From Escherichia phage ph0011, in sequence record OP557969.1: a stretch of DNA of 64,000 nucleotides; one strand, written 5' to 3'. The translations under genes were made by a program, and so were the position numbers. Below, in pieces: positions 747 through 39,503 of the stretch. Each line of letters starts with the position of its first letter. Positions within the stretch are counted from its first letter, which is position 1. The notes beneath the pieces were generated by a model. The model ran no database searches and was not told the DNA's origin. It worked only from the letters and a program-made list of their open reading frames with translations.

Positions 747-862
747 TTATACCCTCCGTTGGAGCCTTGTTAATATGTATATATTTAGTTTAATTTAACT
801 GATATCCAATATTTTATAAAATAAAAAACCAGACTTATTTGAATAAGCCCGGTTTAATTTTA

Positions 863-1759
863 TTACTTACCAGAGATAACAATCTTCCCACTGAATGCAA
901 CATCAGAAGTAAAGATCACGTCACCAGTATTGCTAATTTGTGTATCAGTTATTACCAATTCAAATGGTGAGGATGCAACACTACCAGGTGTTTTATTTGC
1001 ATAAATCGAAACATACAAATTGTCTGGTGATTGTTTGTGTTCAGATGCTGAAATCGTGATGATGAACACATCGTTATTAGAAATCCAATCTGCTTGGTTT
1101 ACTAATTTACTATAAGGTACTGTCATTGTTGTTGCTCCTATAATGTTTACTTTAACATTTGCATAATCTGTAATTTTACCAATTACATCTATTGTGATAT
1201 CACCAGTGCCGCTTACTACTACAGAGGTTTGAAATACGGAATCCAATGTTATACTACCATGAGGATCACCCTGTAGTTGTACCATGATATCAGGACCACG
1301 CCCATGTACAGATGCTGGAAGGGTGTATGTGTAATGGTCGGTAGTATCTGAAACTAATGTAAATGAAGATACTGGTATAGTTTCAGTTGTTACATATGGA
1401 CTATCAGTTTCATGTGAACTACCTTTGAATGATTTCCAAATACCAAGATCTTTAATATAAATTTGAAGAACATTAGTTTCATCAACTAAAAAATACAAAT
1501 CACCATCTAACCCAATAGTTTCATCCGGTGCACTGGTTCCACGCAAAATACCAGAACTCCCACCACTATGTGCGTTTAGATATCCTAACGTAACCAGGTG
1601 TGTGTCAGCGGTCGGTTCACCTGCTGAAATTGGAAGAAGTTTTGTTCCTGAGTAGTTTTGTATTTGCACAACACTACCATTTGTGGTAATCTGTGCACCA
1701 TTCTTCCCAAGAATGAAGGACTTCTTCATGGTTCCTTCTAAATTAGAAAAAACTGCCAT
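863..1759 (-). CDS. Tail fiber / receptor-binding protein (298 aa) with conserved N-terminal anchor domain
   Basis: ATG at 1757-1759, RBS AAGGAGA; first ~110 aa (MAVFSNLEGTMKKSFILGKNGA...) paralogous to N-terminus of adjacent 713-aa ORF; C-terminus divergent. Confidence 0.6.
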   Translation of the reverse strand: MAVFSNLEGTMKKSFILGKNGAQITTNGSVVQIQNYSGTKLLPISAGEPTADTHLVTLGYLNAHSGGSSGILRGTSAPDETIGLDGDLYFLVDETNVLQIYIKDLGIWKSFKGSSHETDSPYVTTETIPVSSFTLVSDTTDHYTYTLPASVHGRGPDIMVQLQGDPHGSITLDSVFQTSVVVSGTGDITIDVIGKITDYANVKVNIIGATTMTVPYSKLVNQADWISNNDVFIITISASEHKQSPDNLYVSIYANKTPGSVASSPFELVITDTQISNTGDVIFTSDVAFSGKIVISGK

Positions 1760-1775
1760 TTTAATTTAATCTCCT

Positions 1776-3917: not shown

Positions 3918-3929
3918 TGTGACACCCCC

Positions 3930-5057
3930 TTAAATATTATCTTGAATAGGTTGGACCGGAGCTTGCCACGAAAGAGTACAAATAATTTCCATTTTACCAT
4001 AAGGACTGTTATTAACTGAATCATTGAATACACATGAAATAATTTCATCTACATCTGAAACTTCATGATTTGTTTCATTGACGATAAAACGCATCTGGTT
4101 ATTAATATCAAAGTAGGTTGTTGGTGCAATTACGGTTCCACCAATATTCTCGTTTGCTTCACCACCAAATCGAACAAACATATCAGTTACTGGTTGTGAA
4201 TAAGGTTGTAAAACATTTACATCTATATTAGAAACTACATATCCAGAAGGACAAGTCCCAATAACTAATAGAGCATTAGTCCATGATCTATCAATAACGT
4301 TTCTAATTGTTACAGTATCTTTGCCTGGTGCACCCGGTTCACCTTGCTTACCTTGAATACCTTGTGGACCTTCTTTACCACGGAATAAAATACCACTACT
4401 CCATTCTTTTGATGGTGGGGTGGTAGTTGTTACTTCATCCACATAATAAAGCTTACCATCAGTGTTGTTATAGAAACAATAATCAATTGGGAGGTTTTCA
4501 ATACTTGGAAATTGATCACCACTATCGTCAATATGAAAACGACCACGTGGACCTTGCTCACCACGGAAAGGAATACCATCACTCCATGTAGCTGTTACTT
4601 TTTGATAAAAATATAGTTTACCATCTTGTGTATTGTAAAATGTATAGTTATCAAAAAGACCAGAACTTGGAAAAGTAGTTCCTGCACTATCGATATGAAA
4701 AGGCTTACCAGCTTCACCAGTATCACCTTTACCAAATTCAACACTAGTCCAAGTACTGGTTTCTTCTTGTGCATCATTTGATTTAAAATACAGAGTACTT
4801 GTGTTATTTGCCAAACTAAGATAGCACCAGCCAAGCGGTTCACCAACTTTAAATTTATCAGATGGAACTTCAAAACCAATCTCATTAGGATAAAAGTTTT
4901 TACCGTTCTGACCATTTTGTCCCACAACAAGACCGAGATCTTGAATTGTATTATCTGTATATGTTACAATTAAATGACCAGCATTATTAATAACTAGACT
5001 TTTGATGCCTGAGTTATTACATGAACCACTGGACCCATTGTTAAATGTAATTGTCAT
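3930..5057 (-). CDS. Tail fiber protein with collagen-like Gly-X-Y segments and ~50-aa tandem repeats (375 aa)
   Basis: ATG 5055-5057, RBS AAAGGGAAA; GEQGPRG and GKEGPQGIQGKQGEPGAPGKD triplet runs; three repeats of the pattern DGKLYF...W..G.PFRG.QGP.G.FHIDD.G..FPS. Confidence 0.6.
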   Translation of the reverse strand: MTITFNNGSSGSCNNSGIKSLVINNAGHLIVTYTDNTIQDLGLVVGQNGQNGKNFYPNEIGFEVPSDKFKVGEPLGWCYLSLANNTSTLYFKSNDAQEETSTWTSVEFGKGDTGEAGKPFHIDSAGTTFPSSGLFDNYTFYNTQDGKLYFYQKVTATWSDGIPFRGEQGPRGRFHIDDSGDQFPSIENLPIDYCFYNNTDGKLYYVDEVTTTTPPSKEWSSGILFRGKEGPQGIQGKQGEPGAPGKDTVTIRNVIDRSWTNALLVIGTCPSGYVVSNIDVNVLQPYSQPVTDMFVRFGGEANENIGGTVIAPTTYFDINNQMRFIVNETNHEVSDVDEIISCVFNDSVNNSPYGKMEIICTLSWQAPVQPIQDNI

Positions 5058-5104
5058 AATATTTCCCTTTTATGAGTGAATGTCATATACCAATATTTAT
5101 CAGT

Positions 5105-5120
5105 ACGAAATACATTTCGT
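5105..5120. promoter_or_regulatory. Perfect 7-bp inverted repeat (ACGAAAT-AC-ATTTCGT) in divergent intergenic region, candidate operator
   Basis: Read directly from sequence; lies between minus-strand fiber gene start (5057) and plus-strand gene start (5167), next to ATAAATA-type motifs on both strands. Confidence 0.35.
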
Positions 5121-5166
5121 CACCATTAATAAATAAATGAAAGTTCACTACTAAAAGGGCTTAACA

Positions 5167-5664
5167 ATGGCATTAAGATCAAAAAACTTTCTTTTTAAAA
5201 GAAAAACAAAAGATGGTTCATGGCAAGATTTTCCTGAATCTGACAGTTGGTATCCAGCCCAATTGGATTATCAATGGAATGAACAAACATTACCACTACC
5301 AAGCGGTGGATATTATGGCAGCACTACAGGTTTGCATACCATTTCATTTACACTACGTAATTTCATTGGAAGAATTTATGTATTAGCAACATTAGCCAGC
5401 AATCCAACAGATGATGATTGGTTCCCAATTAAATTCACTGAAAGTTGTAAATATTATCTAGAATTTACGGATATGGTTATTTTAAATCCAAACGGTGGTG
5501 ATTTGATTAGACAACAAGGAACTACCGGAACATTTGCAGAAACATTAACAGGTAACTTTACATATCTTAAAGTTGGTATTGACCGAGATTATATCAGTAA
5601 GTACCCGTCTGATGTACAAAAAAGTTTAGCAGGTAAACTAGAACAAATTTTAATTAACTACTAA
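5167..5664 (+). CDS. Hypothetical protein (165 aa), first gene of plus-strand three-gene island
   Basis: ATG with RBS AAAGGG 7 nt upstream; no recognisable motif. Confidence 0.5.
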   Translation: MALRSKNFLFKRKTKDGSWQDFPESDSWYPAQLDYQWNEQTLPLPSGGYYGSTTGLHTISFTLRNFIGRIYVLATLASNPTDDDWFPIKFTESCKYYLEFTDMVILNPNGGDLIRQQGTTGTFAETLTGNFTYLKVGIDRDYISKYPSDVQKSLAGKLEQILINY

Positions 5665-5673
5665 GGATTAGAA

Positions 5674-6282
5674 ATGAAATTAGAAGCAGAACAACCAAAA
5701 CTATTTGTTAAAGGTCATGTCCTAATTACTGACGTTACTGATCCATCAAATCAAAAAATCGTTTTAGATAAATCTAACGCTATTCACCCAGAAAATATGA
5801 GTACTGCAATTGCTAATGCGTTAGCATACAATCAAGATAGTACCAGTATTCCTATTGGTTCAATTAGCGAAATGCGTTTTGGTAATGGTGGTACTGTAGT
5901 GTTAAGTACTGGGCGAGTCACGTACAAAAAACCACGCGTGACTTCCTTTGGTGGATTGTATTCACAAACATATTTAAAAAAAATCAACCCAAGAATTTCT
6001 GCTGGTATTGATTCACAGTATAATAACATCACAACAGTTCATATCCCAGGACAATCATATACTGATATTGTATGTATTTGTACACTTGGTTTAGGTGAAC
6101 CATCAGACCAAGGTGTAAGTTCAGGTACAAGTATGGATGGTACATATGTATTTGATGAATTGGGGTTATATACTGATGGTGATAGTGGTATTCCATTGAC
6201 ACATATCATTTTTCACCCAGTTGAGAAAAGTGCTAACCGTGTGTTACAAATTAAATACACAGTTCGTGTACAACTACAATAA
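5674..6282 (+). CDS. Hypothetical protein (202 aa)
   Basis: ATG 5674 with RBS AAGGA; tightly packed after previous stop; no recognisable motif. Confidence 0.5.
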   Translation: MKLEAEQPKLFVKGHVLITDVTDPSNQKIVLDKSNAIHPENMSTAIANALAYNQDSTSIPIGSISEMRFGNGGTVVLSTGRVTYKKPRVTSFGGLYSQTYLKKINPRISAGIDSQYNNITTVHIPGQSYTDIVCICTLGLGEPSDQGVSSGTSMDGTYVFDELGLYTDGDSGIPLTHIIFHPVEKSANRVLQIKYTVRVQLQ

Positions 6283-6294
6283 TGGGGTCAAATT

Positions 6295-7395
6295 ATGAGT
6301 GTAAGTTATACAATTTATAGAAGCAATGGTAGTGTTTATGCTACCATTCCAAATAATGTCATATTGGGGCCAAACCAACCAGGAAGTAACCCAGTTCCGT
6401 TGAATTTCGTCGGAAGAAATAAAGTAAGTTATGGACAAGCATGGAATGAAAACTTTTTACATTTAGTTGAGAATTTTAGTTCGGCTTCAGCACCACGCGG
6501 TAATGTGAACGGTCAACTATGGTACAGAAATGCTGGCAGTACTGGTGAATTATTGATATCATTGGTTGACAATGCTAGACAACCATCAGATGTTGTGAGT
6601 GAAGCTGAGTGGGCGTCTATTCCAATGATTTCTGTGTTTAATACCGTACCAGATGGTGAAAATAGTGTTATGGGTCGTATGGTATTAACCAGTAATGGTG
6701 ACTCACTTCGTGTATTAATGAAAAATAAAGAATGGCGTGAAATTCAAACATCACGCCCTGAGAATAAAGAATATACATCATTATTGGATATTAACTATGA
6801 TAATGGTAAAAAATATATTGAGTTTACACAAAATAATAGTACCAAGCCACTAGCATATTTTAACTTAGGAGGAACGTCACAAGTCGATACTAACAACTGG
6901 ACAACAGTAACTAACGGAACTGGTGTTTTTGAATTTGGTAGTAACTATTTCTATGAATTAAAAATTATGATTAGAGAGGTAAGCGATTCAACAGGTGAAA
7001 TTGTATCAGTTCCACATAATTCAAAAACATTTTTAATCAAAGGTCAATTTTATGTAGATAACCAAGGTACGTTTGTCCCTGGTTCTGTGGGTGCAAGTCA
7101 AATGCCAGACCCCCGCAGGATTACACATCTAGAAACCATTAAAGATGTCATTACCAGTAGTCGCCCGAACTGGGATGTGAACATGGTTATCAATGATGTA
7201 GATCCATCACTACCTAATCCAAACGGCACATCTAAAGCAGATTATGAAAACTGGGTTATTAACTCATTGAACTCTAATAAAAACTTGGGATTTAGAGTTG
7301 ATGGTAGTATTAGCAATCTTGCACCAGGTGAATCTGTGAAATTACAAGCATCAGTGTTGTTAAACATTACAGGTATTCCAATTATTGGTGTATAA
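6295..7395 (+). CDS. Hypothetical protein (366 aa), possibly virion or fiber-associated
   Basis: ATG 6295; G/N/S/T-rich composition similar to the fiber proteins; followed by bidirectional terminator. Confidence 0.45.
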   Translation: MSVSYTIYRSNGSVYATIPNNVILGPNQPGSNPVPLNFVGRNKVSYGQAWNENFLHLVENFSSASAPRGNVNGQLWYRNAGSTGELLISLVDNARQPSDVVSEAEWASIPMISVFNTVPDGENSVMGRMVLTSNGDSLRVLMKNKEWREIQTSRPENKEYTSLLDINYDNGKKYIEFTQNNSTKPLAYFNLGGTSQVDTNNWTTVTNGTGVFEFGSNYFYELKIMIREVSDSTGEIVSVPHNSKTFLIKGQFYVDNQGTFVPGSVGASQMPDPRRITHLETIKDVITSSRPNWDVNMVINDVDPSLPNPNGTSKADYENWVINSLNSNKNLGFRVDGSISNLAPGESVKLQASVLLNITGIPIIGV

Positions 7396-7400
7396 AAAAA

Positions 7401-7422
7401 GGAGCCACATGGCTCCTTTTTT
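7401..7422. terminator. Bidirectional intrinsic terminator
   Basis: Stem GGAGCC/GGCTCC with ACAT loop, A-run upstream and T-run downstream; sits between convergent genes 6295-7395 (+) and 7421-7885 (-). Confidence 0.75.
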
Positions 7423-7885
7423 AATATCTATATGGTAAACTATTGACAAACTGTGTACCTTCACGTATACTTTCCCATAATGAGTAAAAATCTTTCATCA
7501 AGTTTGTGTTAAGCAATGTGTTTTTTGCACCAGGGTGTAATGGTTTAGGCCACGAGCCGATTTTAACCCATGCATATCCAGAGCTTTCATGATTTAATGT
7601 TGGTATAAACTCATTCTCAACTACGATAACAAATGAATAATATTTAAATTTACCATTTTTTGTACAAAATACATCAAATGGTATAATATCAATAATATTT
7701 GGTATTGAGTCACCTAACTCTTCTTTAATTTCTCTCATAAGACCTTGTATTGGTGTTTCGTCGCGTTCAAGCTTTCCACCAACAAATGCCCAATTGTTCG
7801 AATAGGTACTTCTTTCAGAACGTAAATTTAACATCATATGTCCGGTACTTTTTGATAAAAATATAGCACCAACAGCTTCATTCAT
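7421..7885 (-). CDS. NUDIX hydrolase (154 aa)
   Basis: Nudix box GKLERDETPIQGLMREIKEELG fits Gx5Ex7REUxEExG; ATG 7883-7885 with RBS AAGGAGGTG. Confidence 0.85.
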   Translation of the reverse strand: MNEAVGAIFLSKSTGHMMLNLRSERSTYSNNWAFVGGKLERDETPIQGLMREIKEELGDSIPNIIDIIPFDVFCTKNGKFKYYSFVIVVENEFIPTLNHESSGYAWVKIGSWPKPLHPGAKNTLLNTNLMKDFYSLWESIREGTQFVNSLPYRY

Positions 7886-7897
7886 AACAACACCTCC

Positions 7898-9241
7898 TTA
7901 TTTGTCAGTGAAAGTTATTTTCCAATATCCTTGACGATAAACTGGCATAATACTTTTATGCCATTTAAATTTACCATTGTATCTATAATAACCATTATCT
8001 TCGTTGTTATAAATGTAATTACGCACAGTTGATGGGTCAATTAATTCAGCACCGTCGTTGGTAATTTTAAACAAATAATTCGAAGGAATTTCAGTTTCTT
8101 TGTAAATGATGTTATGCATACTGTTATTTACGTAATATTGTTCAGGTATTGCATCAAAAAGAACTGAGCTTTTTTGGACAAATCCATGAATAGTATAATC
8201 AACTGTATAGTTGCTACTATCAAGCTGAACGATAATTTTATTTGCATCTTCATCTTCACCATATGAAGAAATATAGCCTTTGAGTGGATTATCTTCTTCG
8301 ATTGATTGTTGAAATTTAATACCGACTTTTTTATCATCAAAATTGGGTTCCAAATATTTAAGATATTTTTCCCATGAGTATATACCACCATTAGGGGAAA
8401 CATCGGACAATGACTGACTAACTAAAGTTAGTTGATATGTATCTGGTAAATTATATAAAGAATTAGTTATCTCTTCAACTTTAATACATAAGTTTTTTGG
8501 TGTAAAGACATCAGTGATAATATCCGAATAGTCAGACATTTCAATGTCAAATTCATCACGAGCACCTTTTATATTAGTAGTGATCTGTTGAATCAATTTT
8601 GGTTTTTCAACAATAGCTGGTAAAGAAAACCATATTGTTGTTTCAAATGTCAATACCATAATGTCTAAATCTTGGTCAGTTCCTTGTGGAAATCCACGTG
8701 TAGAGAACTGACAATCAATCAACTCTACATCACTTAGTGATGTCCAATCCAACGGGTTTTCAGATAACTGAAGTTGAATACTCGGTGAAAATAAAGTTGA
8801 AATTTGCTCAAATAATTCCATCTTTGTTTGTATTTGAGTTACCCAGATATTCAAATCAAATGTAAATGTCCAAGGAACTGGGTTATGTCTTACGATTTTA
8901 TATTGTGAATCGAGTTCTTTTTTGTATTCATTAATGGCAGGTGATGTGTTTGTTCCCATAACTAATGTTTCATTCGCATTAGAACGTATACTTTTACGAT
9001 CCAGCTTTAGTTGATTAACACTGATTGTCATAATTGGTGCAGATGGAAGAACATTTTCACTATTACCATTGATAATTGCAGCAGCCATTCTTGATATATC
9101 CGCATAACGACATGGAACCTTTTTATATTTTGGGTTCCCATCAGCATCAACACCATTTTGTACTTGAAATTCACCAAAAACTCTGATAAGATGTTTCAGT
9201 ACTCTGCGAAATTGGCCGTCATAATAATAATCTATTTTCAT
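7898..9241 (-). CDS. Tail completion / sheath stabilizer-like protein (T4 gp15-like, 447 aa)
   Basis: N-terminal pattern YYYDGQFRRVLKHLIRVFGEFQVQ...YKKVPCRYADISRMAAAI resembles the T4 gp15 N-terminus as recalled from memory; ATGA overlap with upstream gene; position next to baseplate/fiber genes. Confidence 0.4.
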   Translation of the reverse strand: MKIDYYYDGQFRRVLKHLIRVFGEFQVQNGVDADGNPKYKKVPCRYADISRMAAAIINGNSENVLPSAPIMTISVNQLKLDRKSIRSNANETLVMGTNTSPAINEYKKELDSQYKIVRHNPVPWTFTFDLNIWVTQIQTKMELFEQISTLFSPSIQLQLSENPLDWTSLSDVELIDCQFSTRGFPQGTDQDLDIMVLTFETTIWFSLPAIVEKPKLIQQITTNIKGARDEFDIEMSDYSDIITDVFTPKNLCIKVEEITNSLYNLPDTYQLTLVSQSLSDVSPNGGIYSWEKYLKYLEPNFDDKKVGIKFQQSIEEDNPLKGYISSYGEDEDANKIIVQLDSSNYTVDYTIHGFVQKSSVLFDAIPEQYYVNNSMHNIIYKETEIPSNYLFKITNDGAELIDPSTVRNYIYNNEDNGYYRYNGKFKWHKSIMPVYRQGYWKITFTDK

Positions 9242-10731
9242 TCTGTGTCCTTATGTATACGATAAGCTGTATTTGGTTTAACTGCGTCATGTAATGGAAC
9301 TTTATTATCACTATTTACGAACTTAGTAAGTGCTAAATCTGCACCTTCCCACGGTTTTCTACCACCGTAATCAAAAATAACCCATGAATTCTTAGTTGCA
9401 TTGAATTCCCACAGTGTAACTGGTGTATAATCAGTACGGTAAAAGTAATCACCATCAACTGCATCAGTAGGGAACATGTTTCCTTCTGGAACTGTACCTC
9501 TTGCTGGTGGGATTTTAGGGCGATAATCCTGTTGTGCATCAATATTTCCATATACACAACTTGATGTGAATGGGTCATTGACGTAAGTTACTTTTGGTTC
9601 GCCCCATTTACCATCATTGTACTGAAAAATGTGTGGTTCTTTATAAAAAATACAAAAATCTTCAATATCTTTTGGTGGATTTTCACTGGTCGTGTATTCA
9701 ACATCACAATTTAACCATTTTTTAACACTTTTATCGTACTGGTATAGTGTATACCCAGTTACATCTACATCATTCTCTTTAAAGAAGAAATCACCATCCA
9801 TAGGTTTCTTAGGAAAAACGGTTCCACGCTTGACTTCCAGTGAAATCCATGTATCATTATCGTATTCTTTAAGTATTGGGTATGTTTTTTTCAAAAAATA
9901 CATACCACTTGCAGGTTCTTCGGGGAAATCATATCCATTAAGCATATACTTTGACAAATCAACAGTATCACGACGGTCATCATACAAATGCTCGTTGGTA
10001 TAATGAATATAAGGCACTTCATCATCAGCTTGCATAATGATACGATTCATAATATCCATTTCATTACTATAGTTACTGTTATCAGATGTACCATCATCAG
10101 TGTTACCATTACCATTATTTGGATCATTTGGGTTATCAGGGTAATTGTTGTTTCCTAGTAAGTCGGAGTACTCAGGAGAGTCAGTCAATGGCTTTACTCG
10201 AAGTTTATAAATGTGATGTTGCCAAGTAACAGAGTAACCTTCTGCTGTACGAAACGCATCTTGGACCACATAGAAGCGATTCAGACCAGAATCTTTACCA
10301 AGAACATCATAATCACGTAAATTTGGTAGTTCAATTACATCACCAGGCATGATTTTTCTACCCAATCGTTGCATCATGGTATTGTAGTGGATTGTAATGT
10401 CCATCGTGTTGAAATTAAAGAACAAACCTGGAATTTTCAAGTCAGGTGTTGCTTCTTGAACTTGATAGACACAACTTAGTGTGATTGCTTCAAGATTATA
10501 GTTTCTATTTGGGGTGTCTCCAAAAATTAAATCACCAATACTTGACACAACCGATCCAGAAGATGTATAATCACCGCCATATGATAAGTCTTTGTTATCT
10601 GCAACTTGTTTTGGGCCGACATAAGCGTAAAGCCACATGTCAACACCACCAATGTTGTATTGTTCAGCAATGGCAGAGTCAATGAACTTGTAATCATTGG
10701 TTCTACCTTTTTTCCACATTCTATATGTCAT
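9238..10731 (-). CDS. Hypothetical structural protein (neck gp13/gp14-like by position, 497 aa)
   Basis: ORF-track start at 10743 is TTG; ATG at 10729-10731 (MTYRMWKKG...) has RBS GGAGA 5 nt upstream, so start moved. Internal repeats DGDYFYRTDY / DGDFFFKENDVDVTGY. Confidence 0.45.
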   Translation of the reverse strand: MTYRMWKKGRTNDYKFIDSAIAEQYNIGGVDMWLYAYVGPKQVADNKDLSYGGDYTSSGSVVSSIGDLIFGDTPNRNYNLEAITLSCVYQVQEATPDLKIPGLFFNFNTMDITIHYNTMMQRLGRKIMPGDVIELPNLRDYDVLGKDSGLNRFYVVQDAFRTAEGYSVTWQHHIYKLRVKPLTDSPEYSDLLGNNNYPDNPNDPNNGNGNTDDGTSDNSNYSNEMDIMNRIIMQADDEVPYIHYTNEHLYDDRRDTVDLSKYMLNGYDFPEEPASGMYFLKKTYPILKEYDNDTWISLEVKRGTVFPKKPMDGDFFFKENDVDVTGYTLYQYDKSVKKWLNCDVEYTTSENPPKDIEDFCIFYKEPHIFQYNDGKWGEPKVTYVNDPFTSSCVYGNIDAQQDYRPKIPPARGTVPEGNMFPTDAVDGDYFYRTDYTPVTLWEFNATKNSWVIFDYGGRKPWEGADLALTKFVNSDNKVPLHDAVKPNTAYRIHKDTE

Positions 10732-10773
10732 ATTTGTCTCCAAAATAATTCGGGTATATCTTTATTTACCATG

Positions 10774-10801
10774 TAGACAAACCATAAGAATGTGATATAA
10801 T
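10774..10801 (+). promoter_or_regulatory. Sigma70-type promoter with extended -10 (TAGACA-N16-TGaTATAAT) upstream of the ClpA-like gene
   Basis: Hexamers read directly; ~40 nt upstream of ATG 10840, which has RBS GGAGA. Confidence 0.5.
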
Positions 10802-10839
10802 GTTTGTTAATTAGAGTGACGTGAATCACAGGAGAATAC

Positions 10840-13128
10840 ATGAATCTTACTCAATTGTTCAAAAAAAGCGACGAACTAGCAACATCCCTAGGTCATACTT
10901 TCTTGACTATTGACCATGTGAGTGCTACAGTACTGACTATTGATAGTATCAAGGGCGTGTTCGAAGAAATGAACATCGATGCTGACAAATTGCATAGTCG
11001 ACTGATGAACTATCTTAAAAATACAACGGTTCCAAGTGCACCAAAAAGTACACTCGATGAAGATGCTAATCGCACTTCACTTCTGGTGAACCGTGTTGTA
11101 CATGAGCTTTCGAAAAAATCAGTCATTGAACAACTAAAAAGTGATGATTTTTCGATTGATGCATATTTTGTTCTATTTGAATGTTTATCATTCCCAAACA
11201 CTGCACTTGAAGCTGCTTTGAAAGAAGAAGGCGTTAGCTGTACCGAAGCTGCTCGTGCACTACAGAAACACGTTGAGGCACTGGAAAAGGGTATCAACCT
11301 TCAAAGTATCAATGACGAACCTACTGGAGATAAAAAAGTGGCTCAACCACAGCAATCATCTAAACAAAAAGGTTTAGCAGACTATACAACAAACCTAACG
11401 GCACTTGCAAAAGAAGGCAAACTAGACCCAATGATTGGTCGCCAAAAAGAGCTATCTGCATTGATTGAGACTCTTGCTCGCAAAACCAAAAAGAATGCCA
11501 TCCTGACTGGTGAAGCTGGTGTTGGTAAAACACAAATCATCGACGGTCTTGCACAAGCAATTGCTGATGGTAATGTACCAGAGCACTTAAAAGATGTTGA
11601 AATTCTTTCCCTAAATGTTGGTGCGTTGACTGCTGGGACTAAGTATCGTGGTGAATTTGAGGAACGTATCGATAATTTACTAAAAGAACTAAAGAAACGT
11701 GAAAACACAATTGTTTTCATTGATGAAATCCATATTATGGTCGGAGCAGGTTCTGCAAGCAACGGTTCAATGGACATGAGCAATATGCTTAAACCAGCAC
11801 TATCACGTGGTGAGATTCGTGTAATTGGTGCAACAACATACGAAGAATATCGTAAAAACATCGAGAAAGATAGTGCATTGACTCGTCGTTTTATGAAAAT
11901 TGATGTTGTTGAACCGTCAATCGATGAAACTCGTGAAATTGTGAACGGTCTTAAATCAACTTATGAAAAATTCCATAACGTTGAGTTTACAAAAGATGCA
12001 ATGGATGCAGTAATTTCTCTCAGTGAGAAGTTCTTGAAAAATAAACACTTCCCAGATAAAGCAATTGACCTAATGGATGCTGCTGCTGCGAAAGTGCGTT
12101 CACGTGATAATAATAGTAAACTAATTACAGAGAATTTGATTCAAGAAGTTGTTGCTGGTATTGCTAACTTGGATATCAACGTGGTTGCATGTACAGAAAG
12201 TGAACGTATGCGTAATCTACCAGATGCACTACGTTCACGTGTTTACGGACAAGAAGAAGCGATTCAAAAATTGGTTGATAATGTAATGGTTGCTCGTGCT
12301 GGTCTACGTGATAAGTCGAGTGTTCAGGGTGCTTTTATGTTTGTTGGTCCGTCAGGTACTGGTAAAACAGAAATTACAAAAGCATTAGCTGAAGCAACGG
12401 GTTCAGAGCTTGTTCGTTTTGATATGTCTGAGTTTTCTCAAGAACATACTGTTTCAAAACTAATTGGTTCCCCTCCAGGTTATGTTGGTCACGATTCTGG
12501 TAATGGTTTGCTATTGGATAAGATTGAGCAGTTTCCTAATGCCATTCTACTACTCGATGAAATCGAGAAAGCAGATCGTAAAGTACTACTAACCTTCCTA
12601 CAGGTTCTGGACGAAGGACGTTTGACTGGCTCACAAGGTAAAACTGTTTACTTCAATAACGTAACTGTTATTATGACAACCAACCTTGGTGCGGCTGATT
12701 CAACAAAGCGTAGTATTGGGATGAGTGGTAGTGAAAGTGCACAAGACAAGGCAATTAAAGCATTCTTACCACCAGAATTCATTAACCGTATTGACAGTAT
12801 TGTTACGTTTAATGAACTAAGTAGTGAAGCAATTGACAGTATCATTGATAAATTCATGGGAAGTTTGAATGAACAAGTTAAACATCGCAACGTAAAAGTT
12901 TCACTAACGAAAGCTGCACGTGGATGGCTTGCAAAAAATGGTGTTCAGGTAGGTATGGGTGCACGACCAATGAAACGTACAATTGAACAAAACATTCGCG
13001 TACCACTAGCGAAGGAAATGTTGTGTGGTTCACTGGTAAATGGTGGTAACATTACATTTGATGTTATCAATGACAAACTTGGTATTAAACCAAAACGTAC
13101 TAAAGCAGTTGAAAAAACACTAGCTTAA
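10840..13128 (+). CDS. ClpA/ClpB-family AAA+ unfoldase (two-ATPase-domain Hsp100, 762 aa)
   Basis: D1 Walker A GEAGVGKT and Walker B IVFIDEIH; D2 Walker A GPSGTGKTE and Walker B LLLDEIEKA; GYVGHDSGNGLL; SIGM tripeptide loop where ClpA carries its ClpP-docking IGL loop; ClpA-like length. Confidence 0.9.
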   Translation: MNLTQLFKKSDELATSLGHTFLTIDHVSATVLTIDSIKGVFEEMNIDADKLHSRLMNYLKNTTVPSAPKSTLDEDANRTSLLVNRVVHELSKKSVIEQLKSDDFSIDAYFVLFECLSFPNTALEAALKEEGVSCTEAARALQKHVEALEKGINLQSINDEPTGDKKVAQPQQSSKQKGLADYTTNLTALAKEGKLDPMIGRQKELSALIETLARKTKKNAILTGEAGVGKTQIIDGLAQAIADGNVPEHLKDVEILSLNVGALTAGTKYRGEFEERIDNLLKELKKRENTIVFIDEIHIMVGAGSASNGSMDMSNMLKPALSRGEIRVIGATTYEEYRKNIEKDSALTRRFMKIDVVEPSIDETREIVNGLKSTYEKFHNVEFTKDAMDAVISLSEKFLKNKHFPDKAIDLMDAAAAKVRSRDNNSKLITENLIQEVVAGIANLDINVVACTESERMRNLPDALRSRVYGQEEAIQKLVDNVMVARAGLRDKSSVQGAFMFVGPSGTGKTEITKALAEATGSELVRFDMSEFSQEHTVSKLIGSPPGYVGHDSGNGLLLDKIEQFPNAILLLDEIEKADRKVLLTFLQVLDEGRLTGSQGKTVYFNNVTVIMTTNLGAADSTKRSIGMSGSESAQDKAIKAFLPPEFINRIDSIVTFNELSSEAIDSIIDKFMGSLNEQVKHRNVKVSLTKAARGWLAKNGVQVGMGARPMKRTIEQNIRVPLAKEMLCGSLVNGGNITFDVINDKLGIKPKRTKAVEKTLA

Positions 13129-13136
13129 AAAACAAA

Positions 13137-13162
13137 AGGAGAGCATTTTGCTCTCCTTTTTT
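13137..13162. terminator. Bidirectional intrinsic terminator between ClpA-like gene and giant ORF
   Basis: Stem AGGAGAGC/GCTCTCCT, loop ATTTT, flanked by A-run and T-run. Confidence 0.8.
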
Positions 13163-13163
13163 A

Positions 13164-16100
13164 TTACTTAACTATTAATATTTTTTGAATATCATTACCA
13201 CGAACTCGTAGACTGTTAGTATACACAGAAAGGTCTATTGTATAACTATTTTGAGTATAACGTTTAAACTTATCATAACCGCCCAAATTAATTCCGTTGA
13301 AAGAATATGTAGTATCATGTTTGAAATCGTGTTCTGCACTGTACATTACTCCACGGAGTAAGTTGTTTGTATTTCTAACTTCAACTTTTTCATATCCAAT
13401 CGATATAATGTCACTCTTGTTAGCAGCGGAGCCTGATAACACATTATTTCTAACATTATAATGGCTTACGGAAAGAGGTTGTGCTACATAAGTTGTGTTT
13501 TCTTCACTAATGGTTGTTATGTTAGTGATGGTAGCGTCAGCCACATCAATATACATACTATCAACCATTGGATATTCATACACCCACACACCTTCATTAT
13601 TTTTTGTCGGTTTGATATCTTTCGCATCATATTCAATCACGTTAATTTCTAAACAATCCGGCATTTTAGTTCTTACTAATTCACTAAGAACACCTTCCCC
13701 TGTAATTGGTAGATTATAACCGTTGTCTATAGTAATACCATCATCATTAAATATTTCATTTGATACAACCCAAACATCAACATCATCAGGTGTTACTCCG
13801 TCATTATACTTACCACCATTTAAAGTAGTATCATAAAAAACGTCATAATTAATCACATCAATGGTGTAATTTCTGTTTTGCTCATATAATTTAATATCAC
13901 CCTTGGTAAATTCTGGGTCAGCAAATGTTCTAACACGAACAATGTTCAATGCAAGATGTTGTACTGGCTGATTCAGTTGTCCAAGTGTGATGTTATCATA
14001 TCGAAGAACATTACCAGAACTATCAACCAACTCAATCGTTTCTTTTCCTGTAGTTCTTACAGTGAATAGAATAGGAGTTGTATTATGTTTGATATTAGAC
14101 ACACGTAATATGGTTTCCCATGTACGATTTTGATATCGAATAAAATCTTCACCATCCGGTGTGAAAATCATCACCTTATCACCATCAGATAAGTCACTGT
14201 CAACGATTTCAGCCTCAGTTAAGCTATTAATAGAACGTACACGATAGAAATATTTTTCTTCAAACGGTGATGCCGTTTTATTAATATCATGTTCAATCTT
14301 AGCATATGAAGGAATACTAACAATTGCTTCTGTATGTTTATATGGGTTGATAATTGCCATACCCTCGGTTTTATATCTGCTATTATTACGCAATTGCACT
14401 AGTGATTCAGTATCAAATCCATAACCATCAACAGTGAATCTAATATGCCCAACTGCACGACTAGCTGGATTTATTTCAGATATATCGATAATATAAGGAT
14501 CAACTTCATCATCTTTAACTTCCCATTTGATAGCTGAAGTTTGTGATTCTAATGCAAGGTTGTCAAATGCATTCATATCATTGAAGAACTTAGCTTCAGC
14601 AATACTATCAATTATATATTGATAATCCGAATACATAGGGTTATTTTGATCTTGTGGTAAATCATCTAGATTTATTTCAGCAAGTTTAATCATTTCACCA
14701 TTAGTAATGAAATAATCTTCCATGAAATCATCAATACTTTTATCATCTGGTATACTTTGGTATTCACCATTGATATTTAAGTAGACATGTTTTCTTGGCA
14801 TCATAGTAATAGCATAGATATCAATAGGTGTTTTTGAAAGAATTTCTTCTGCTTTTTCATACATATCAGCAGAGTCTTTATCAAACAACCCTCTCATGGC
14901 TGCCAGTACATGGACCGCATCGGAATAGAAACGTGTATCACCACCAATTTCATCATAACGATAAACATATACACCGTATTCAACTTCAAGTTTCACTTTA
15001 ATATCATGTTCAGATGCATCTGGATATTTTTCTGTAATAAAAGAAATATATTTTTCATATAATTCTTTACTTATTTCAAAATATCCATAGTTATAATCAT
15101 TACTTGAAGAAAAACCTAATGGTAGTCTAGTACTTGGGTTATCATTATAAACCAAACCACTAAATCCACAGCCAACCTCATCATGAATCTTATCATCACT
15201 GATATCTTTATAAAGTTTCAAACGGTTTGCTAATGTATTGTACTGAACATAGTGTCGAAGGTCAGTAAACATTTCATTATGCGTTGATTCGTTATAAATG
15301 CGTTCAAGTGTAGCAGTAAATTCATCAGTTGCTTCTAAATCATCAGCATGTTCTTTATACCACTGGTTTACACCATTTGCAGTTCCTAGTGTTACATCTA
15401 ATTCTGGATAGTACGTTTGTAATAGATACGCATTAACCAAGTCAAATGATTGTTCATTATACACAGGGTAAGAATATATATAACGTTGTAATTCATAGGT
15501 ATTAACAGAATCTTTTTCATTTGATTGATACTTATTATTAACACTAATCAACTCATTAATGTTTGCCAAATCTTTATTCGGTTTACATTGAATATTATCA
15601 TAATGCATAATAATATCAATTTCTTGAAATCTTCTATTTGGTGCAATAAAATCACTAGGCAGAGAACCTACTTTCTCCCATTTTTTAGTGGTTTCATTAT
15701 ATTGAGCGTACTCATAATCCCAAATATCCTTTTCAGTTTTAACCCACGAACCATCAACAAAAATATACCCATTAGGATCTAAATCATTACAAAGACCTTT
15801 GATTAAGTCATCATCAGACGTTTTTTGTTCTATCTGTGAACGGATTTTTGTACGATATGGTTTCACCTCTTCAAAGTACTCAACAATTTGGTTAATCAAA
15901 TTATCATTTGAATAGTTTTGTACCAAAGATTGTTCCAAACCAACAATATAGATATAGGATGTTTTAAATACCCAATCAACAACACCCTGTTCTACGTGTA
16001 CATATTTGACCATATCAAAAACAATTTCACTTTGGTGTAAATCGAAAGAATTTTTTAGCAAAGCAAGTGCTTTTCTAATATTAATTTCACGATTACTAAG

Positions 16101-19100
16101 TGAACCGTCCTCATTATGAACATTATAATCTACATAAAACAAATCGTTAAGCTCAATAGTACTACGTTGTCGCCCAATAGCTTTCCAATAAATTGAATCA
16201 CGTGATTGAGATTTGATATATAAAGTCCAAATGTTTTCACTATCTGTGACTCTAATTATATCACCAACTTGATAGTTTTTAGCATTTGCTTCTTCTAAAC
16301 TTATCTCTTGGATGTAAGCAGTTTTGCTATCATACCCAACATCATACCAATCTGCATAAGACCAGTATTGAGTCATATCTAATGATGTTCCGAGTGATTC
16401 AACATAATCCGATTGCTTAATCATTTTATGTTGTCCTTCACCTTTATTTTCTAAAGTTATAGTAACAACACTACCTGCATTAGCTGGACTATTCATTAAC
16501 TGAATATATCCGTTTTCATCGAAGTGAATAAAATAAACAGCACTAGTTGATAATGGAGTCGGTAGATAACCGCTAGAACTTAAAATAACAGCGTCATTTT
16601 CTTTAAATTTATCCTTTTCAACTGCAATTACAAGTTCATTATTATAAGTTAATACACGGAACGAAACCTCATTAGGGTTAACTTCTGTAGTTTTAACATT
16701 AAACACATCTTCCATAACAACACTATTAGTAGTTATGTTTTGTGATCTATAATAATTATTTGCACTTTCTACAAAGTTTCTACGTGCCTCTATTATATTC
16801 TGGAACCAAGTTTTATTAGAGCCTAAACCAGTGTCAACTTCTGGATATAATAAATCTACAACCTTACCTGACTTCGTAGTTTCTTGACCAATTAGAGAGT
16901 TCCACATAGAGTCCCAAATTAGTGGGTTAAAGTTGTAACTTTCACCCTCTTTGCAAAGTTGATATTGGTCATGTTTAACAACTTCTGTATTGTCCATATA
17001 GTAAGAAATAGTCAAAACACTAGTATCATCATTAACTTCAAACTGCATATTACTAAGAATAAAAGAGTTTTCATTAATTGGTGCGAACCAAGGAATGTTC
17101 AACTGTGATGGATCTTTAATAATACGTGCAATGTCAGTACATGATTTTGTTCTGGTATGAATAGGTGGTACATAAATTGTATCACGTACCCAGAAATAGT
17201 ATTTTGTTACATAACTGTCAGTGGAGCTATCATATTCCAAAAATGTACTATAATTATCTTCAAGTGCTGTTCCACTTGGAAGATACATATTATTATTTTT
17301 GTTTTTCTTAGCAACATCTTTACAGTACTTATCCCAGTTATATGGTTCTACTGGTGAACAAACCCATTCCAACACATCAATAGTACTATGTGGCAACAAA
17401 CGACCCCAGTTGTAACGTTTATATTCATTGGTTGCGTCAATATCAACATTTCCATCTGCATCATAAATGGCACGAGTATAATCCAAATAAAAAGCGGTGC
17501 TAGTGTTCCACCATACTTGACCAACTTTTTCAGCACCCCACGCCTGAACCAATTCGCCATTGCTATTATATTGAGCAGGGTCGATTGGTGAAGTATATGT
17601 TACGTTTTGCATTGCTGCACCAGGAATAACACCATTAATTGGGTCATAAACATTTAGATATAATGCAGTAATGTTTGTACGTTCATCATATGTAGTTGGA
17701 CGTTCAAACAAAGTACTTTGTGGTGCTTTAAAACTATATTTTTTATCAATATATGCTTGACGCTCTTCAGTACTCACAAAACGCGAAACATAACGATACA
17801 AACGAGGGCGTGTATCTGGGTCAGTAAATTCGATATTAATTGAAGTATCAAATGGAACCACCATAACTTTGGAATCATCCCCAGCAGTATAATATTGACT
17901 TTCTACTGTTAAAGTATCTGGCATAAAGTTAGTTTCGTCCACAAAATAATAGTAATCACCATCTTCAAGAGGGATATCATCAGATAGAGTTACTTTACAG
18001 AATTTCTCAGCGTAAACATCTGTGGTTTCGATTGGTGTAATAGAAACCATTTTAACATTAGTGTCAATTAATTCAAAAATGTTCCATAACCCATTTCCAT
18101 CTTTGAACATCCATACTGATTCAGGATTTTCACCTTTACCATTGATATACAACATACGGTCATTGAATGCAGTACTGAAATCTTTCGTAGTATAAGATAC
18201 TTCATCTAATGTAACTGGACCAATATCAGGCAGTTGGATGTGTTCACTTCTACCACTACGCATTGGGAAAGAGAATTTACCATTTGGACGAGTAATCCAT
18301 TGTGGGTCTTTTCCTTGTTCACCAAAGAATACAATATTGTTTCCATTACCATTTGATGTTGCATTTTCATCAAAAGACATCATTTGTGGCTGCTGCTTAA
18401 ATTGGTCATTAATCAATTTAAATTGAAGGTTTTTCTTTCCATCGATGTTACCATATGTACCAACTTTAAACGCCCATTCTTGTAATGCTTTATATTCATC
18501 AGTATCATAGGATTTAGAAACACGAAGAACACGTTCTAAAACTTGGTTTGTACCTTTGTCATGAATAAATCCTTTATAGAAATCAACACGACTTACATCA
18601 CTACTAATCATACGTTGTAGATAATCACGAGATTGATAACCAATCAAATGGCTAGACAATTCTTGTAATTGTACATCGCTAACGGGATGTTCATTGTCAT
18701 AGTAATGTTGAAAATCTGTTACTAGAGTTTCAAATGATGGTATTGTACCAGATTCCAAAATAATAAAACCAGGTGCTTGTAATCTACCAGTCCATGAACC
18801 AGTAATGTACCCATACATTTTAATTAGTTCCTGGATAGAACCATAAGTTGGTTGATAGATATAATCACCAAAAATAGTCTTATCATCAAATATAACAGCA
18901 TGTTCATATGAACACAAACTTAAGCGGATTAATGCAATACGCTTATTAGAATCGGTTGTTCTAACAGTGAATATATTACCAATACGTGAAGTTTCGATTT
19001 CATATTGACGAATACCTTGGTTATTATCATCAAGCAATGACCACACACCACCATTATTTTGTGTAATAGACTGTACTGAACCAAAATCCGAACCAAACTT

Positions 19101-33738: not shown

Positions 33739-33767
33739 TGGGACAAACTGGTTCTTAGTGCTATAAT
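33739..33767 (+). promoter_or_regulatory. Extended -10 sigma70-type promoter (TGcTATAAT with weak -35 TGGGAC) for gp55-like gene
   Basis: Read directly; ~58 nt upstream of ATG 33825. Confidence 0.45.
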
Positions 33768-37947: not shown

Positions 37948-38442
37948 TTATTTTGTATCTCTTTTTACATCAACCATGTTTAATTTACCGTCCTTAATTA
38001 GCTTTCTAGCTTGTTTTACACGAGCAGTAGTGTTGCTACCAGGGACGACACCTAACCCTTCCAGAATTGCGTTTTGCTGCGTTGCTGGAAGCCTTTTAAA
38101 CTTATTCACATCTACTGTTAGTGCTGTGTGATGTATCACTTGCTCTTCTAGTGGGATGTTGTTGTTCTTTTCAAGATAATCTGCCAGATTTCTTAGAACT
38201 TCATGTAAAGGCATATCAGTTAAATGCTTTCCATATCGGTTCCATGCGTTGGAAACTTTACCTTCAAATGCGTTTATTTCATTCTGTAGAACTTCACGAC
38301 AGTGTTGGTTACCATAGTGGTAGTGATCCAGTACTGGTTTAGTTATTGGTTCCTTAATTATAGGATCAATTCCTTTTTGCTTCTTTAGTAATTCATTACG
38401 ATAGTTTGCAGCTTCTTTACTATCTTTTAATCTTTTCTTCAT
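37948..38442 (-). CDS. Endonuclease VII-like protein (Holliday-junction resolvase family), atypical (164 aa)
   Basis: LDHYHYGNQHCREVLQNEINAFEG resembles the endo VII core HLDHDH...N..EG; the N-terminal CxxC zinc pair of T4 gp49 is absent; RBS GGTGGGG. Confidence 0.45.
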   Translation of the reverse strand: MKKRLKDSKEAANYRNELLKKQKGIDPIIKEPITKPVLDHYHYGNQHCREVLQNEINAFEGKVSNAWNRYGKHLTDMPLHEVLRNLADYLEKNNNIPLEEQVIHHTALTVDVNKFKRLPATQQNAILEGLGVVPGSNTTARVKQARKLIKDGKLNMVDVKRDTK

Positions 38443-38534
38443 AAATCCCCACCAAACTAATTTTTATAAAAATATTTATGAGTTACATTAGAGAACAATA
38501 ATTATGTGTTTTTTGATAAATAAATTTAAATTAT

Positions 38535-38564
38535 TTGAGACAACTTTGAAGTTTGTGCTATAAT
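38535..38564 (+). promoter_or_regulatory. Near-consensus sigma70 promoter TTGAGA-N18-TATAAT in ORF-poor region
   Basis: Hexamers read directly at 38535-38540 and 38559-38564; no plausible coding gene downstream before the terminator at 39017-39040. Confidence 0.5.
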
Positions 38565-38570
38565 GTTTGA

Positions 38571-39040
38571 TGTAGTAATGACAATCCTGTTGAATGCAGA
38601 AATGCATATAAATTAGAACCTGATCCTATCGAAAATGTAGATGGCAGATGAGCAGTTCAACAGTGCGATGAGCAGAAGAAACCCGTCAGAAGTGGGCATA
38701 GTTTGAACCCCTCACGGCAATGCGGCTCAATAAAGAACTCCGATAAGCACACAGAGAGTTCCTAGATAGACATATAAGGAATCACACCTTACCAGATTTG
38801 CTAAGGGAGTTTATTAATTGATTTTAATAAACAGCCTGAAGTTTGATTGTATAGACTTTCAGGTGAGTGCTGGGATGAAAAGACCAGTGACCGTTGCATA
38901 TGACCGTGATAGGGAGAAACAGAGCAACCCGCTTCCGTTTGTGATTGATCATTTTTACAATATAGATCCGTCCAAAATTCACGATACAATAAATGCTGAA
39001 ACCATCAGCGTCAAGAAGAGACTTAATTGTCTCTTTTTTA
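38571..39040 (+). ncRNA. Candidate non-coding RNA of unknown class (~470 nt)
   Basis: Bounded by the promoter above and an intrinsic terminator; largest non-coding gap in the window (~850 bp); only short or terminator-crossing ORFs; local hairpins and a 9-nt direct repeat GATGAGCAG x2. Confidence 0.35.
39017..39040 (+). terminator. Intrinsic terminator (plus strand)
   Basis: Stem AGAGAC/GTCTCT, loop TTAATT, followed by TTTTTTATT. Confidence 0.55.
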
Positions 39041-39251
39041 TTACTTTCATTCCCCTGTGGGGGGATGAAAATGTCCTCAACAAATCCCGTCAAGTTTTAA
39101 ATCTTTAAAAGTTCTTTCTAAATTAATTTAATGAAATGAATATGAGTTACGTAGTAACGAATATTCTTCAGGTAACGAATGAAATGAGTTAGCTGAATCC
39201 AATATATTAAAATTAATCTTTCATAATTCAATTCAAATAATTCTGTAGTTT

Positions 39252-39281
39252 AAAAACAAAAAACCAGCAACAATGTGCTGG
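39252..39281 (-). terminator. Intrinsic terminator (minus strand) downstream of gene 39294-39503
   Basis: Stem CCAGCA/TGCTGG with 6-nt loop, followed on minus strand by T-rich run (TTTTTTGTTTTT). Confidence 0.7.
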
Positions 39282-39293
39282 TAATTATGTGAT

Positions 39294-39503
39294 TTAGTGC
39301 TTCTCGTTTTGTTTTTTAATTTTCTTATTAAAAGACTTAACTAATAAGTCTCTATCTATTAAAGGCATATTAAGAAGTGTTCCATAGTCAATATTATCCA
39401 TATAAACAGAACACTCCATTAGTGCTTGTTTGATTTCTGACTTATTCAGTTCTATCTCCCTTATGACTTCTTGTATTTCTTCAGGAGTTGACTGGAGAAG
39501 CAT
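39294..39503 (-). CDS. Hypothetical small protein (69 aa)
   Basis: ATG 39501-39503; 1-nt overlap with upstream gene; terminator downstream. Confidence 0.45.
   Translation of the reverse strand: MLLQSTPEEIQEVIREIELNKSEIKQALMECSVYMDNIDYGTLLNMPLIDRDLLVKSFNKKIKKQNEKH

Follow-up and report, generated by a model that had tools for sequence, protein, structure and literature searches.

A multi-copy family of large structured RNAs in Rak2-like jumbo phages and bacterial islands

The RNA gene and its promoter

The window analysed here is a 64,000-nucleotide stretch of Escherichia phage ph0011 (sequence record OP557969.1), an Asteriusvirus-like (Rak2-like) jumbo phage, and our subject is the interval between its positions 38,443 and 39,293. 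We are highly confident that this interval is a stand-alone gene for a structured noncoding RNA of a new family. On its left is an endonuclease VII gene (37948-38442, minus strand), and on its right is a 69-codon minus-strand gene (39294-39503), followed by a baseplate-hub gene that runs to 40444. An earlier note, made from the sequence without database searches, had described this gap as poor in open reading frames (ORFs). That description holds, as between the two minus-strand coding sequences there are a 96-codon ORF (38818-39108), an 89-codon ORF on the opposite strand of the same stretch (38824-39093) and otherwise only short ORFs. With BLAST, the interval is matched in 72 phage records, from phages of Escherichia, Klebsiella, Salmonella, Erwinia, Yersinia, Serratia, Pectobacterium, Cronobacter and Xanthomonas. 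Identity is 91-94% to Escherichia phage UE-S1 and 88-90% to PBECO4/121Q; phage 121Q is the one genome that was scanned whole.

The main features of the gene are these:

38536..38564, plus strand: promoter, with a -35-like TGAGAC (38536-38541) and an extended -10 TGcTATAAT (38556-38564)
38571..39098, plus strand: structured RNA core of about 528 nt, placed by the family profile, covariation, minimum free energy (MFE) z-scores and invariant G-U pairs
39013..39040, plus strand: H14, a terminator-like hairpin and U-run, internal and optional; 5 of 6 pairs covary, and it is absent in 9 of 33 members
39046..39098, plus strand: conserved 3' segment, in all members; H15, UUCAUUCCCC-UGUG-GGGGGAUGAA (39046-39069), then CAAAUCCCGUCAAG
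39099..39262, plus strand: AT-rich tail, 21% GC, with repeats GTAACGAAT (39154, 39172) and a hairpin (39167-39176/39188-39197)
39263..39282, no strand assigned: hairpin ACCAGCA/UGCUGGU with flanking A-run and T-run, scored on the minus strand; conserved in orthologous copies from other genera

In the earlier note, the proposal was a structured RNA of about 470 nt, undescribed so far and driven by a promoter of its own. Its central idea is borne out by the covariation, by the lack of a conserved reading frame and by the failure to match any known class. The length is not. The family profile (nhmmer) matches the window once, at 38572-39098, which gives a core of about 528 nt, and the conserved tail lengthens the RNA to about 39197, or about 630 nt in total. 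The locus is a structured RNA gene, yet it is not a singleton and belongs to a multi-copy family.

The promoter named in the earlier note (TTGAGA-18-TATAAT, 38535-38564) is present, with 11 of 12 positions matched and a TG ahead of the -10. It is a phage-type sigma-70 promoter with an extended -10 that is the RNA gene's own, and transcription would start at about 38570-38572. Promoter-like matches in the region are not above shuffles (13 observed, 13.4 expected), but this one is conserved, as the consensus TG(G/A)(G/A)AC-N~14-TGTGnTATAAT is found in 45 of the 60 family members. In phage 121Q, this promoter class occurs 16 times on the plus strand and not once on the minus strand, at sites that precede ssb, primase, exonuclease and late sigma factor genes. 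Besides the RNA promoter, the window holds a single site of the form TG(G/A)(G/A)AC-N12-16-TGnTATAAT, at 33739-33767. The class matches the 'TGAAACG' promoters of phages CBB and GAP32, which have been linked to DNA-synthesis genes (PMC5259590).

Fold, ends and identity of the RNA

We built the structure from an alignment of 33 members and used a separate alignment of 47 sequences for the 3' domain. With the 33 members, RNAalifold predicted 73 pairs, of which 44 are compensatory; five pseudoknots came from column-pair analysis. Pseudoknots included, the full model comprises 19 helices with 95 pairs, and every helix can form in the window sequence. An alignment with relatives had been named in the earlier note as a check, and it reveals double compensatory changes in 66 of the 95 pairs. 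In the full model 96.3% of cells are paired, compared to 36-43% with shifted partners, and the covariation score is 0.487, compared to 0.06-0.10 in shifted controls. In the shuffle control, none of 500 shuffles reached the observed value on four measures, and one of 500 did on the fifth. The 3'-domain alignment is 93% paired, with 36-46% in its control. About 100 positions of the RNA are invariant, and many of these are unpaired.

We assign the RNA to the plus strand because its invariant or near-invariant G-U pairs are possible on that strand only, and because H15 varies by C-to-U changes alone, all of which retain a G-U pair. The MFE z-score is -5.0 on the plus strand and -3.2 on the minus strand.

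It is very improbable that the interval is instead a protein-coding region (the 96-codon ORF or the annotated small ORFs) or a DNA-level repeat with no RNA role. The case for it is the ORF itself, which has a TTG start, together with existing records: several GenBank records annotate two to four 'hypothetical proteins' over family loci, and the UE-S1 record labels the locus 'repeat_region'. However, every one of the 59 other members, the closest relatives UE-S1 and 121Q among them, has stops in this frame, so the relatives lack the conserved coding frame that the earlier note had set against its own proposal. The ORF also crosses the terminator-like hairpin, as had been pointed out. Substitutions fall 15/7/10 and 7/7/4 by codon position, with no third-position excess, and indels among members are not multiples of three. 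We reject a protein-coding gene on the stops and the lack of codon-position bias; the G-U pairs, together with covariation specific to one strand, call for an RNA. This corrects the annotation of those GenBank records in which 'hypothetical proteins' were called across RNA loci.

The helices and pseudoknots (PK) of the model are listed below, all on the plus strand:

38587..38663: PK-A, in which CUGUUGAA (38587-38594) pairs with UUCAACAG (38656-38663) in the loop of H3; 8 of 8 pairs form in the window
38595-38606: H1, with a GAAA loop, between the strands of PK-A
38620-38630/38640-38647: H2, with conserved loop GAAAAUGUA, then an invariant GAUGAG; double changes in 7 of 8 pairs
38652-38654/38664-38666: H3, a hairpin whose loop enters PK-A
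38669-38673/38725-38729: H4, a long-range helix that encloses H5 and a variable hairpin; covariation
38683-38686/38714-38717: H5, inside H4; covariation
38720-38722/38771-38773: PK-E, AUG with CAU
38735-38740/38756-38761: H6, 6 of 6 pairs covary
38746-38749/38799-38802: PK-B, AGCA in the H6 loop with UGCU; covariation
38775-38779/38787-38791: H7, between H6 and the UGCU strand of PK-B
38802-38809: invariant UAAGGGAG, in invariant alignment columns
38809-38817/38824-38832: Hs, an A/U-rich hairpin
38835..38990: 3' domain, with H9, H10, H11, H12, H13, PK-C and PK-D, seen in both alignments
38835-38845/38852-38863: H9, whose loop AUUGUA enters PK-C
38846-38851/38985-38990: PK-C, AUUGUA with UACAAU; 99.3% paired, 5 of 6 pairs covary
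38868-38873/38884-38889: H10, in the 3' domain
38893-38897/38924-38928: PK-D, 100% paired
38905-38909/38979-38983: H11, 100% paired
38912-38916/38932-38936: H12, 100% paired
38939-38941/38973-38975: H13, in the 3' domain, which holds an inserted hairpin module
38943..38972: optional hairpin module GAUUGAUC..UACAAUAUAGAUCCGUC, inserted within H13

The pseudoknots vary in sequence while keeping their pairing. Columns 29-114 of PK-A have AU12/CG6/UA5/GC3, columns 213-277 of PK-E have GC21/AU11, and PK-C reads AUUGUA/UACAAU, AUCGAA/UUCGAU and AUUGCA/UGCAAU in three copies of 121Q. Hs (columns 316-386) shows four pair types. The short and long forms of the variable hairpin within H4 are alternative inserts. 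The hairpin module of about 30 nt within H13, with conserved loop UACAAUAUAG, is carried by other members between UAAGGGAG and H9 (columns ~330-380), and its sequence suggests a module that has changed place inside the RNA. We dropped one RNAalifold helix, UAA.GG/CC.GUUG (columns 308-313/448-453), because it is incompatible with PK-B and PK-D, both of which covary. No variation is seen across the alignment in the predicted closing pairs UGA/UCA (columns 101-103/674-676). The direct repeat GATGAGCAG reported in the earlier note is found at 38647 and 38667; across the family only the first copy (GAUGAG) is kept, so we regard the repeat as lineage-specific.

The stem-loop that had been read as an intrinsic terminator does exist (39013-39038, with T's to 39040), and the region is rich in terminator-like sites (5 observed, 1.2 expected). 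As the 3' end of the RNA it does not hold up. Conserved, covarying structure runs on to 39098 and further, into a hairpin of the tail at 39167-39197, so the end is not at 39040. The module to which H14 belongs is in the 3' position in 41 of 60 members and directly after +1 in some others, never in both. With a terminator at +10 to +40, most transcripts would end early, barring read-through or a structural role for the hairpin. The segment UUCAUUCCCCUGYGGGGGGAUGAA...CAAAUCYCGUCA after H14 is kept in all members, including those that have no H14. Just upstream, a hairpin GCUGA/UCAGC (38995-39009) varies in register among members and was excluded from the model; a terminator-like site on the minus strand (39009-38995) is its mirror.

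The tail has 21% GC, compared to 34.5% for the window. In the family, mean GC is 32% in the first 110 nt past the core and 40% in the core. The short tail repeats described earlier, GTAACGAAT (39154, 39172) and ATGAAATGA (39131, 39179), are present, and they are part of a family-wide tail motif AACGAA(G) that is enriched 8-11 fold, with typically 2 AACGAAG per tail where 0.29 are expected. The tail hairpin has at least seven compensatory stem variants. What follows the tail is either a ribosome binding site (RBS) and the start of a plus-strand gene, which differs by paralogue, or, as here in the window, a terminator that is bidirectional. The ACCAGCA/UGCUGGU hairpin there terminates the convergent minus-strand genes, and it may also be where a long form of the RNA ends.

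We did not find the RNA among known classes. The scan with Rfam 15, whose families include GOLLD, ROOL, OLE, HEARO, raiA, group I/II introns, 6S, tmRNA, RNase P and hammerhead, had no match in the whole window at gathering threshold. At E up to 10, positions 38300-39400 gave chance-level matches to terminator-containing small RNAs only. Rfam also had no match in the four 121Q paralogues or in two copies from bacterial islands, in a search where the positive control, the signal recognition particle (SRP) RNA, was detected. The earlier note had seen no hallmarks of tRNA or tmRNA, and ARAGORN agrees, with zero genes in the window. No prior description of the RNA element was found in the searched literature. 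We concluded that the family is previously undescribed in databases or the searched literature.

Two ribozymes were considered by motif and rejected. RNase P RNA is of the same size class and also has long-range helices and pseudoknots, but the order of its helices differs. We take AGAUGA...CAGAAGAAACCCG and CGACCGUUGCA...ACAGAGCAACCCGC to be likenesses to RNase P at the level of motifs; the formal tests failed. RNase P RNA had no Rfam match in the interval even at E up to 10, and R1, our covariance model of the 99-position family core, misses E. coli rnpB (the best match at that locus has an E of 7.5 and lies outside rnpB). A hammerhead-like core (CAGAUGAG...CGAA) was seen by eye. Its would-be invariant positions vary (GUUGAG, AAUGAG), and there is no Rfam hammerhead match.

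A distantly related jumbo phage, PA5oct, has four 'putative lncRNAs' (long noncoding RNAs; ncRNA001-004) in its genome. These are RNA-seq regions of 236-619 nt that are ORF-free and promoter-independent (PMC7318152), and in number per genome they resemble our family. Homology, for which ncRNA004 had looked similar by eye, is not supported; nhmmer gave an E of 0.03 over 47 nt and the covariance model an E of ~1 or higher. The 3' end of ncRNA004 (972-1018 of the examined stretch) has a weak likeness to H14-H15, which the core covariance model does not support.

Copies in phage genomes and bacterial islands

BLAST places the RNA at 3-5 places per genome in every Rak2-like phage checked. In 121Q there are four copies, at 90.3, 192.8, 247.5 and 326.6 kb, which are separated by gaps of 55-112 kb, lie on the gene-dense plus strand and occupy four of the five largest annotation gaps. 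In a pattern scan of IMG/VR, members were found solely in jumbo-phage contigs of about 345-380 kb, and a pattern scan of metagenomes gave 65 loci. The 60 distinct full-length members form 35 clusters at 90% identity.

Contig Ga0164306_10000001 (366 kb) has copies near 41, 108, 188, 270 and 333 kb, and the gaps between them measure 63-81 kb. For five random points to leave no gap below 63 kb, the chance is (1-5x63/366)^4, or about 4e-4. The copies are over-dispersed in the genome; these are related genomes, so this amounts to about one observation. The paralogues are old and divergent, and they are tens of kb apart. The phage copies are syntenic and not recently mobile. A separate stretch of 121Q (135194-137161) runs for 2 kb with no annotated gene amid plus-strand genes, and its composition is reversed, with a GC skew of -0.13 and an AT skew of +0.17; it has two short tandem arrays only and is not a member of the RNA family.

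Full-length members with the phage-type promoter and the tail also occur in bacterial chromosomes, namely in one Silvania hatchlandensis assembly and in 2 of 5426 E. coli genomes. For E. coli, we took the context from strain LR-29-1 (NZ_AP027515), and the second genome, EEC_W5, had the same match in BLAST:

E. coli LR-29-1, 7958-18302 of the examined stretch: island, with the RNA at 11957-12545 in a 1.4-kb unannotated gap
Silvania hatchlandensis NZ_JAMGZK010000045, 1-13175: 13-kb stretch of 40.7% GC, with the RNA at 8283-7770 on the minus strand

The E. coli copy lies in a 10-kb integrative island between ffs and ybaA, with 39% GC compared to 54% in the flanks. It carries a resolvase and a tyrosine integrase disrupted by IS3, and its candidate defence genes are PDC-M45 (DuOB, DUF488, mSLOG-DUF4326). 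The Silvania RNA sits between a serine integrase of 703 amino acids and a CI/LexA-like repressor, near a DarT-like gene, an ADP-ribosylglycohydrolase of 561 amino acids and an invertase. The two islands are unrelated, and they have nothing but the RNA unit in common with the phages. Each island copy shares about 80% identity with its nearest phage counterpart, and the fold is kept, with 10-11 compensatory double changes. No match was found among 72,556 plasmids, and we therefore rejected a link to plasmid replicons.

The setting of the islands raises the idea of a conflict-system RNA, whether a decoy, a sensor, a partner of defence or counter-defence, or the RNA of a mobile element. The island copies adjoin integrases and defence-type genes, with a DarT-like gene and ADP-ribosylglycohydrolase in one and PDC-M45 in the other. 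In one phage paralogue group (L015, L019, L041), the frame right after the RNA starts with an ADP-ribosylglycohydrolase-like motif, as judged by eye. We nevertheless think this improbable. The age and synteny of the phage copies and their lack of recent mobility do not fit it, and the defence genes of the two islands are unlike each other; what they share is a resolvase and a weakly similar membrane protein. There is also no consistently adjacent reverse transcriptase, nuclease or Cas-like partner.

Another idea comes from the genes downstream. Most paralogues are directly upstream of plus-strand genes, where a hairpin and RBS follow the tail, and same-strand genes follow the RNA in both islands. 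The RNA could be a cis-acting leader that switches on downstream plus-strand blocks by processive antitermination or message stabilisation. The put element of phage HK022, an element of about 70 nt with two hairpins after a promoter, acts on polymerase so that it passes terminators. The place of our RNA after a promoter would fit such a role, as would the canonical terminator inside the conserved unit, which must be read through, and regular spacing suits operon leaders. However, the genes beyond the copy in the window and beyond its orthologues are convergent ones on the minus strand, and these copies end at a terminator that works in both directions; the genes downstream also vary between paralogues. 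The size and fold are also unlike put, as 530 nt with five pseudoknots is disproportionate for such a role. We consider a leader unlikely.

A possible role tied to DNA sites

What remains to be weighed is a role at particular sites in the genome or a role in trans. A role tied to a site is favoured by the dispersal of the copies, their single orientation, the replication-type promoter, the AT-rich tail with its iteron-like AACGAAG repeats and the capture by islands. A trans-acting ribonucleoprotein (RNP), ribozyme or RNA-only particle is favoured by the elaborate fold. From these sequence features, we see it as evenly balanced whether the RNA acts in cis or locally. That it is an origin or pre-primer RNA is our leading but tentative reading, by analogy to known systems; a role in trans is the main rival and only slightly less probable.

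Under this origin reading, the RNA would be a structured transcript from a replication origin and would act at the DNA site of synthesis. It would be made from the promoter class that drives the ssb, primase and exonuclease genes, and its folded body would position the 3' part (the G-run hairpin and the repeat-bearing AT-rich tail) to open or prime the DNA. Islands that have only the RNA unit would be copied as hitch-hikers upon phage infection. The logic would be that of oriF and oriG of phage T4, which are R-loop origins, and of ColE1 RNA II, a precedent for an origin transcript.

The likeness to these systems lies in a promoter-driven transcript of about 500 nt with a folded body before an AT-rich region; a promoter and then an AT-rich region are what origin transcripts need, and the window has both. 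As in our family, T4 has several sites per genome, and here the promoter class is common to replication genes. A unit of the ColE1/T4 type is also portable and could confer replication on foreign DNA. The differences are that the ColE1 and T4 origin transcripts do not have a conserved pseudoknotted fold, which our family has, and that for the family we saw no antisense regulator and no GC-skew signal.

Several points weigh against an origin. Five pseudoknots and about 100 invariant positions far exceed what a primer or origin transcript needs, and such elaborate structure is usually seen in ribozymes, RNP scaffolds and RNA-only particles. There was no GC-skew inflection at the 121Q copies, where the skew tracks the gene strand, although this is a weak test in T4-like phages. 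We saw no conserved antisense promoter like that of ColE1 RNA I at the family loci; the sole minus-strand promoter-like site (39014-38986, 9/12) uses CGTCAAG, where most members have CGTCAG. The spacing evidence, being from related genomes, is worth about one observation, and over-dispersion could also be produced by recombinational loss of close repeats. The tail would act at least partly as RNA, and not only as DNA iterons, because its hairpin covaries. Lastly, the literature searched yielded no transcriptome for Asteriusvirus, Alcyoneusvirus, Eneladusvirus or Mimasvirus.

A trans-acting RNA (an RNP scaffold, a ribozyme or a ROOL/GOLLD-like RNA-only multimer, with sub-specialised paralogues) is a doubtful but serious alternative. 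The ornate fold is of the kind seen in partner-binding or catalytic RNAs. Pseudoknot sequences are specific to each paralogue and self-consistent, which would prevent cross-pairing of the copies. In an RNA-only multimer, loop contacts between molecules would hold the copies together, and the covariation of PK-A to PK-E would look alike for contacts within and between molecules. ROOL and GOLLD are also large phage-borne RNAs, and they form RNA-only cages (10.1101/2024.12.08.627333). Found in phages and prophages, these two are hundreds of nt long, with many helices, pseudoknots and conserved unpaired nucleotides. On the other side, a role in trans leaves the even spacing, the single orientation and the conservation of the AT-rich repeat tail past the terminator unexplained, and it does not readily explain why islands captured just the RNA unit. 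The family matches none of the Rfam 15 models for ROOL, GOLLD, OLE, HEARO or raiA and is not beside tRNA genes, the usual setting of ROOL and GOLLD. Those two have one copy per genome, whereas our family has 3-5 dispersed paralogues and an AT-rich repeat tail.

The origin reading can be put more broadly, as a speculation that we think has some chance of being right: Rak2-like phages may mark their origins, or some other position-dependent function, with an elaborately folded 'origin RNA' every 60-110 kb, and small integrative islands of enterobacterial chromosomes may have captured the unit so that an infecting giant phage copies and spreads them. Large and highly structured RNA classes are rare in bacteria and phages, and the earlier ones proved to be ribozymes, guide RNAs or RNA-only cages. 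We know of no other large RNA with several old paralogues per genome, regularly spaced copies, conservation beyond a terminator and uptake into islands. Among large RNA candidates that have no assigned function, the family is one of the best supported, and it is a good target for cryo-electron microscopy. Together, its genomic features point to a position-dependent role, possibly in the replication of 350-kb genomes. If that is true, these phages would have a new, RNA-based way to define origins, and the islands would represent a new minimal satellite strategy.

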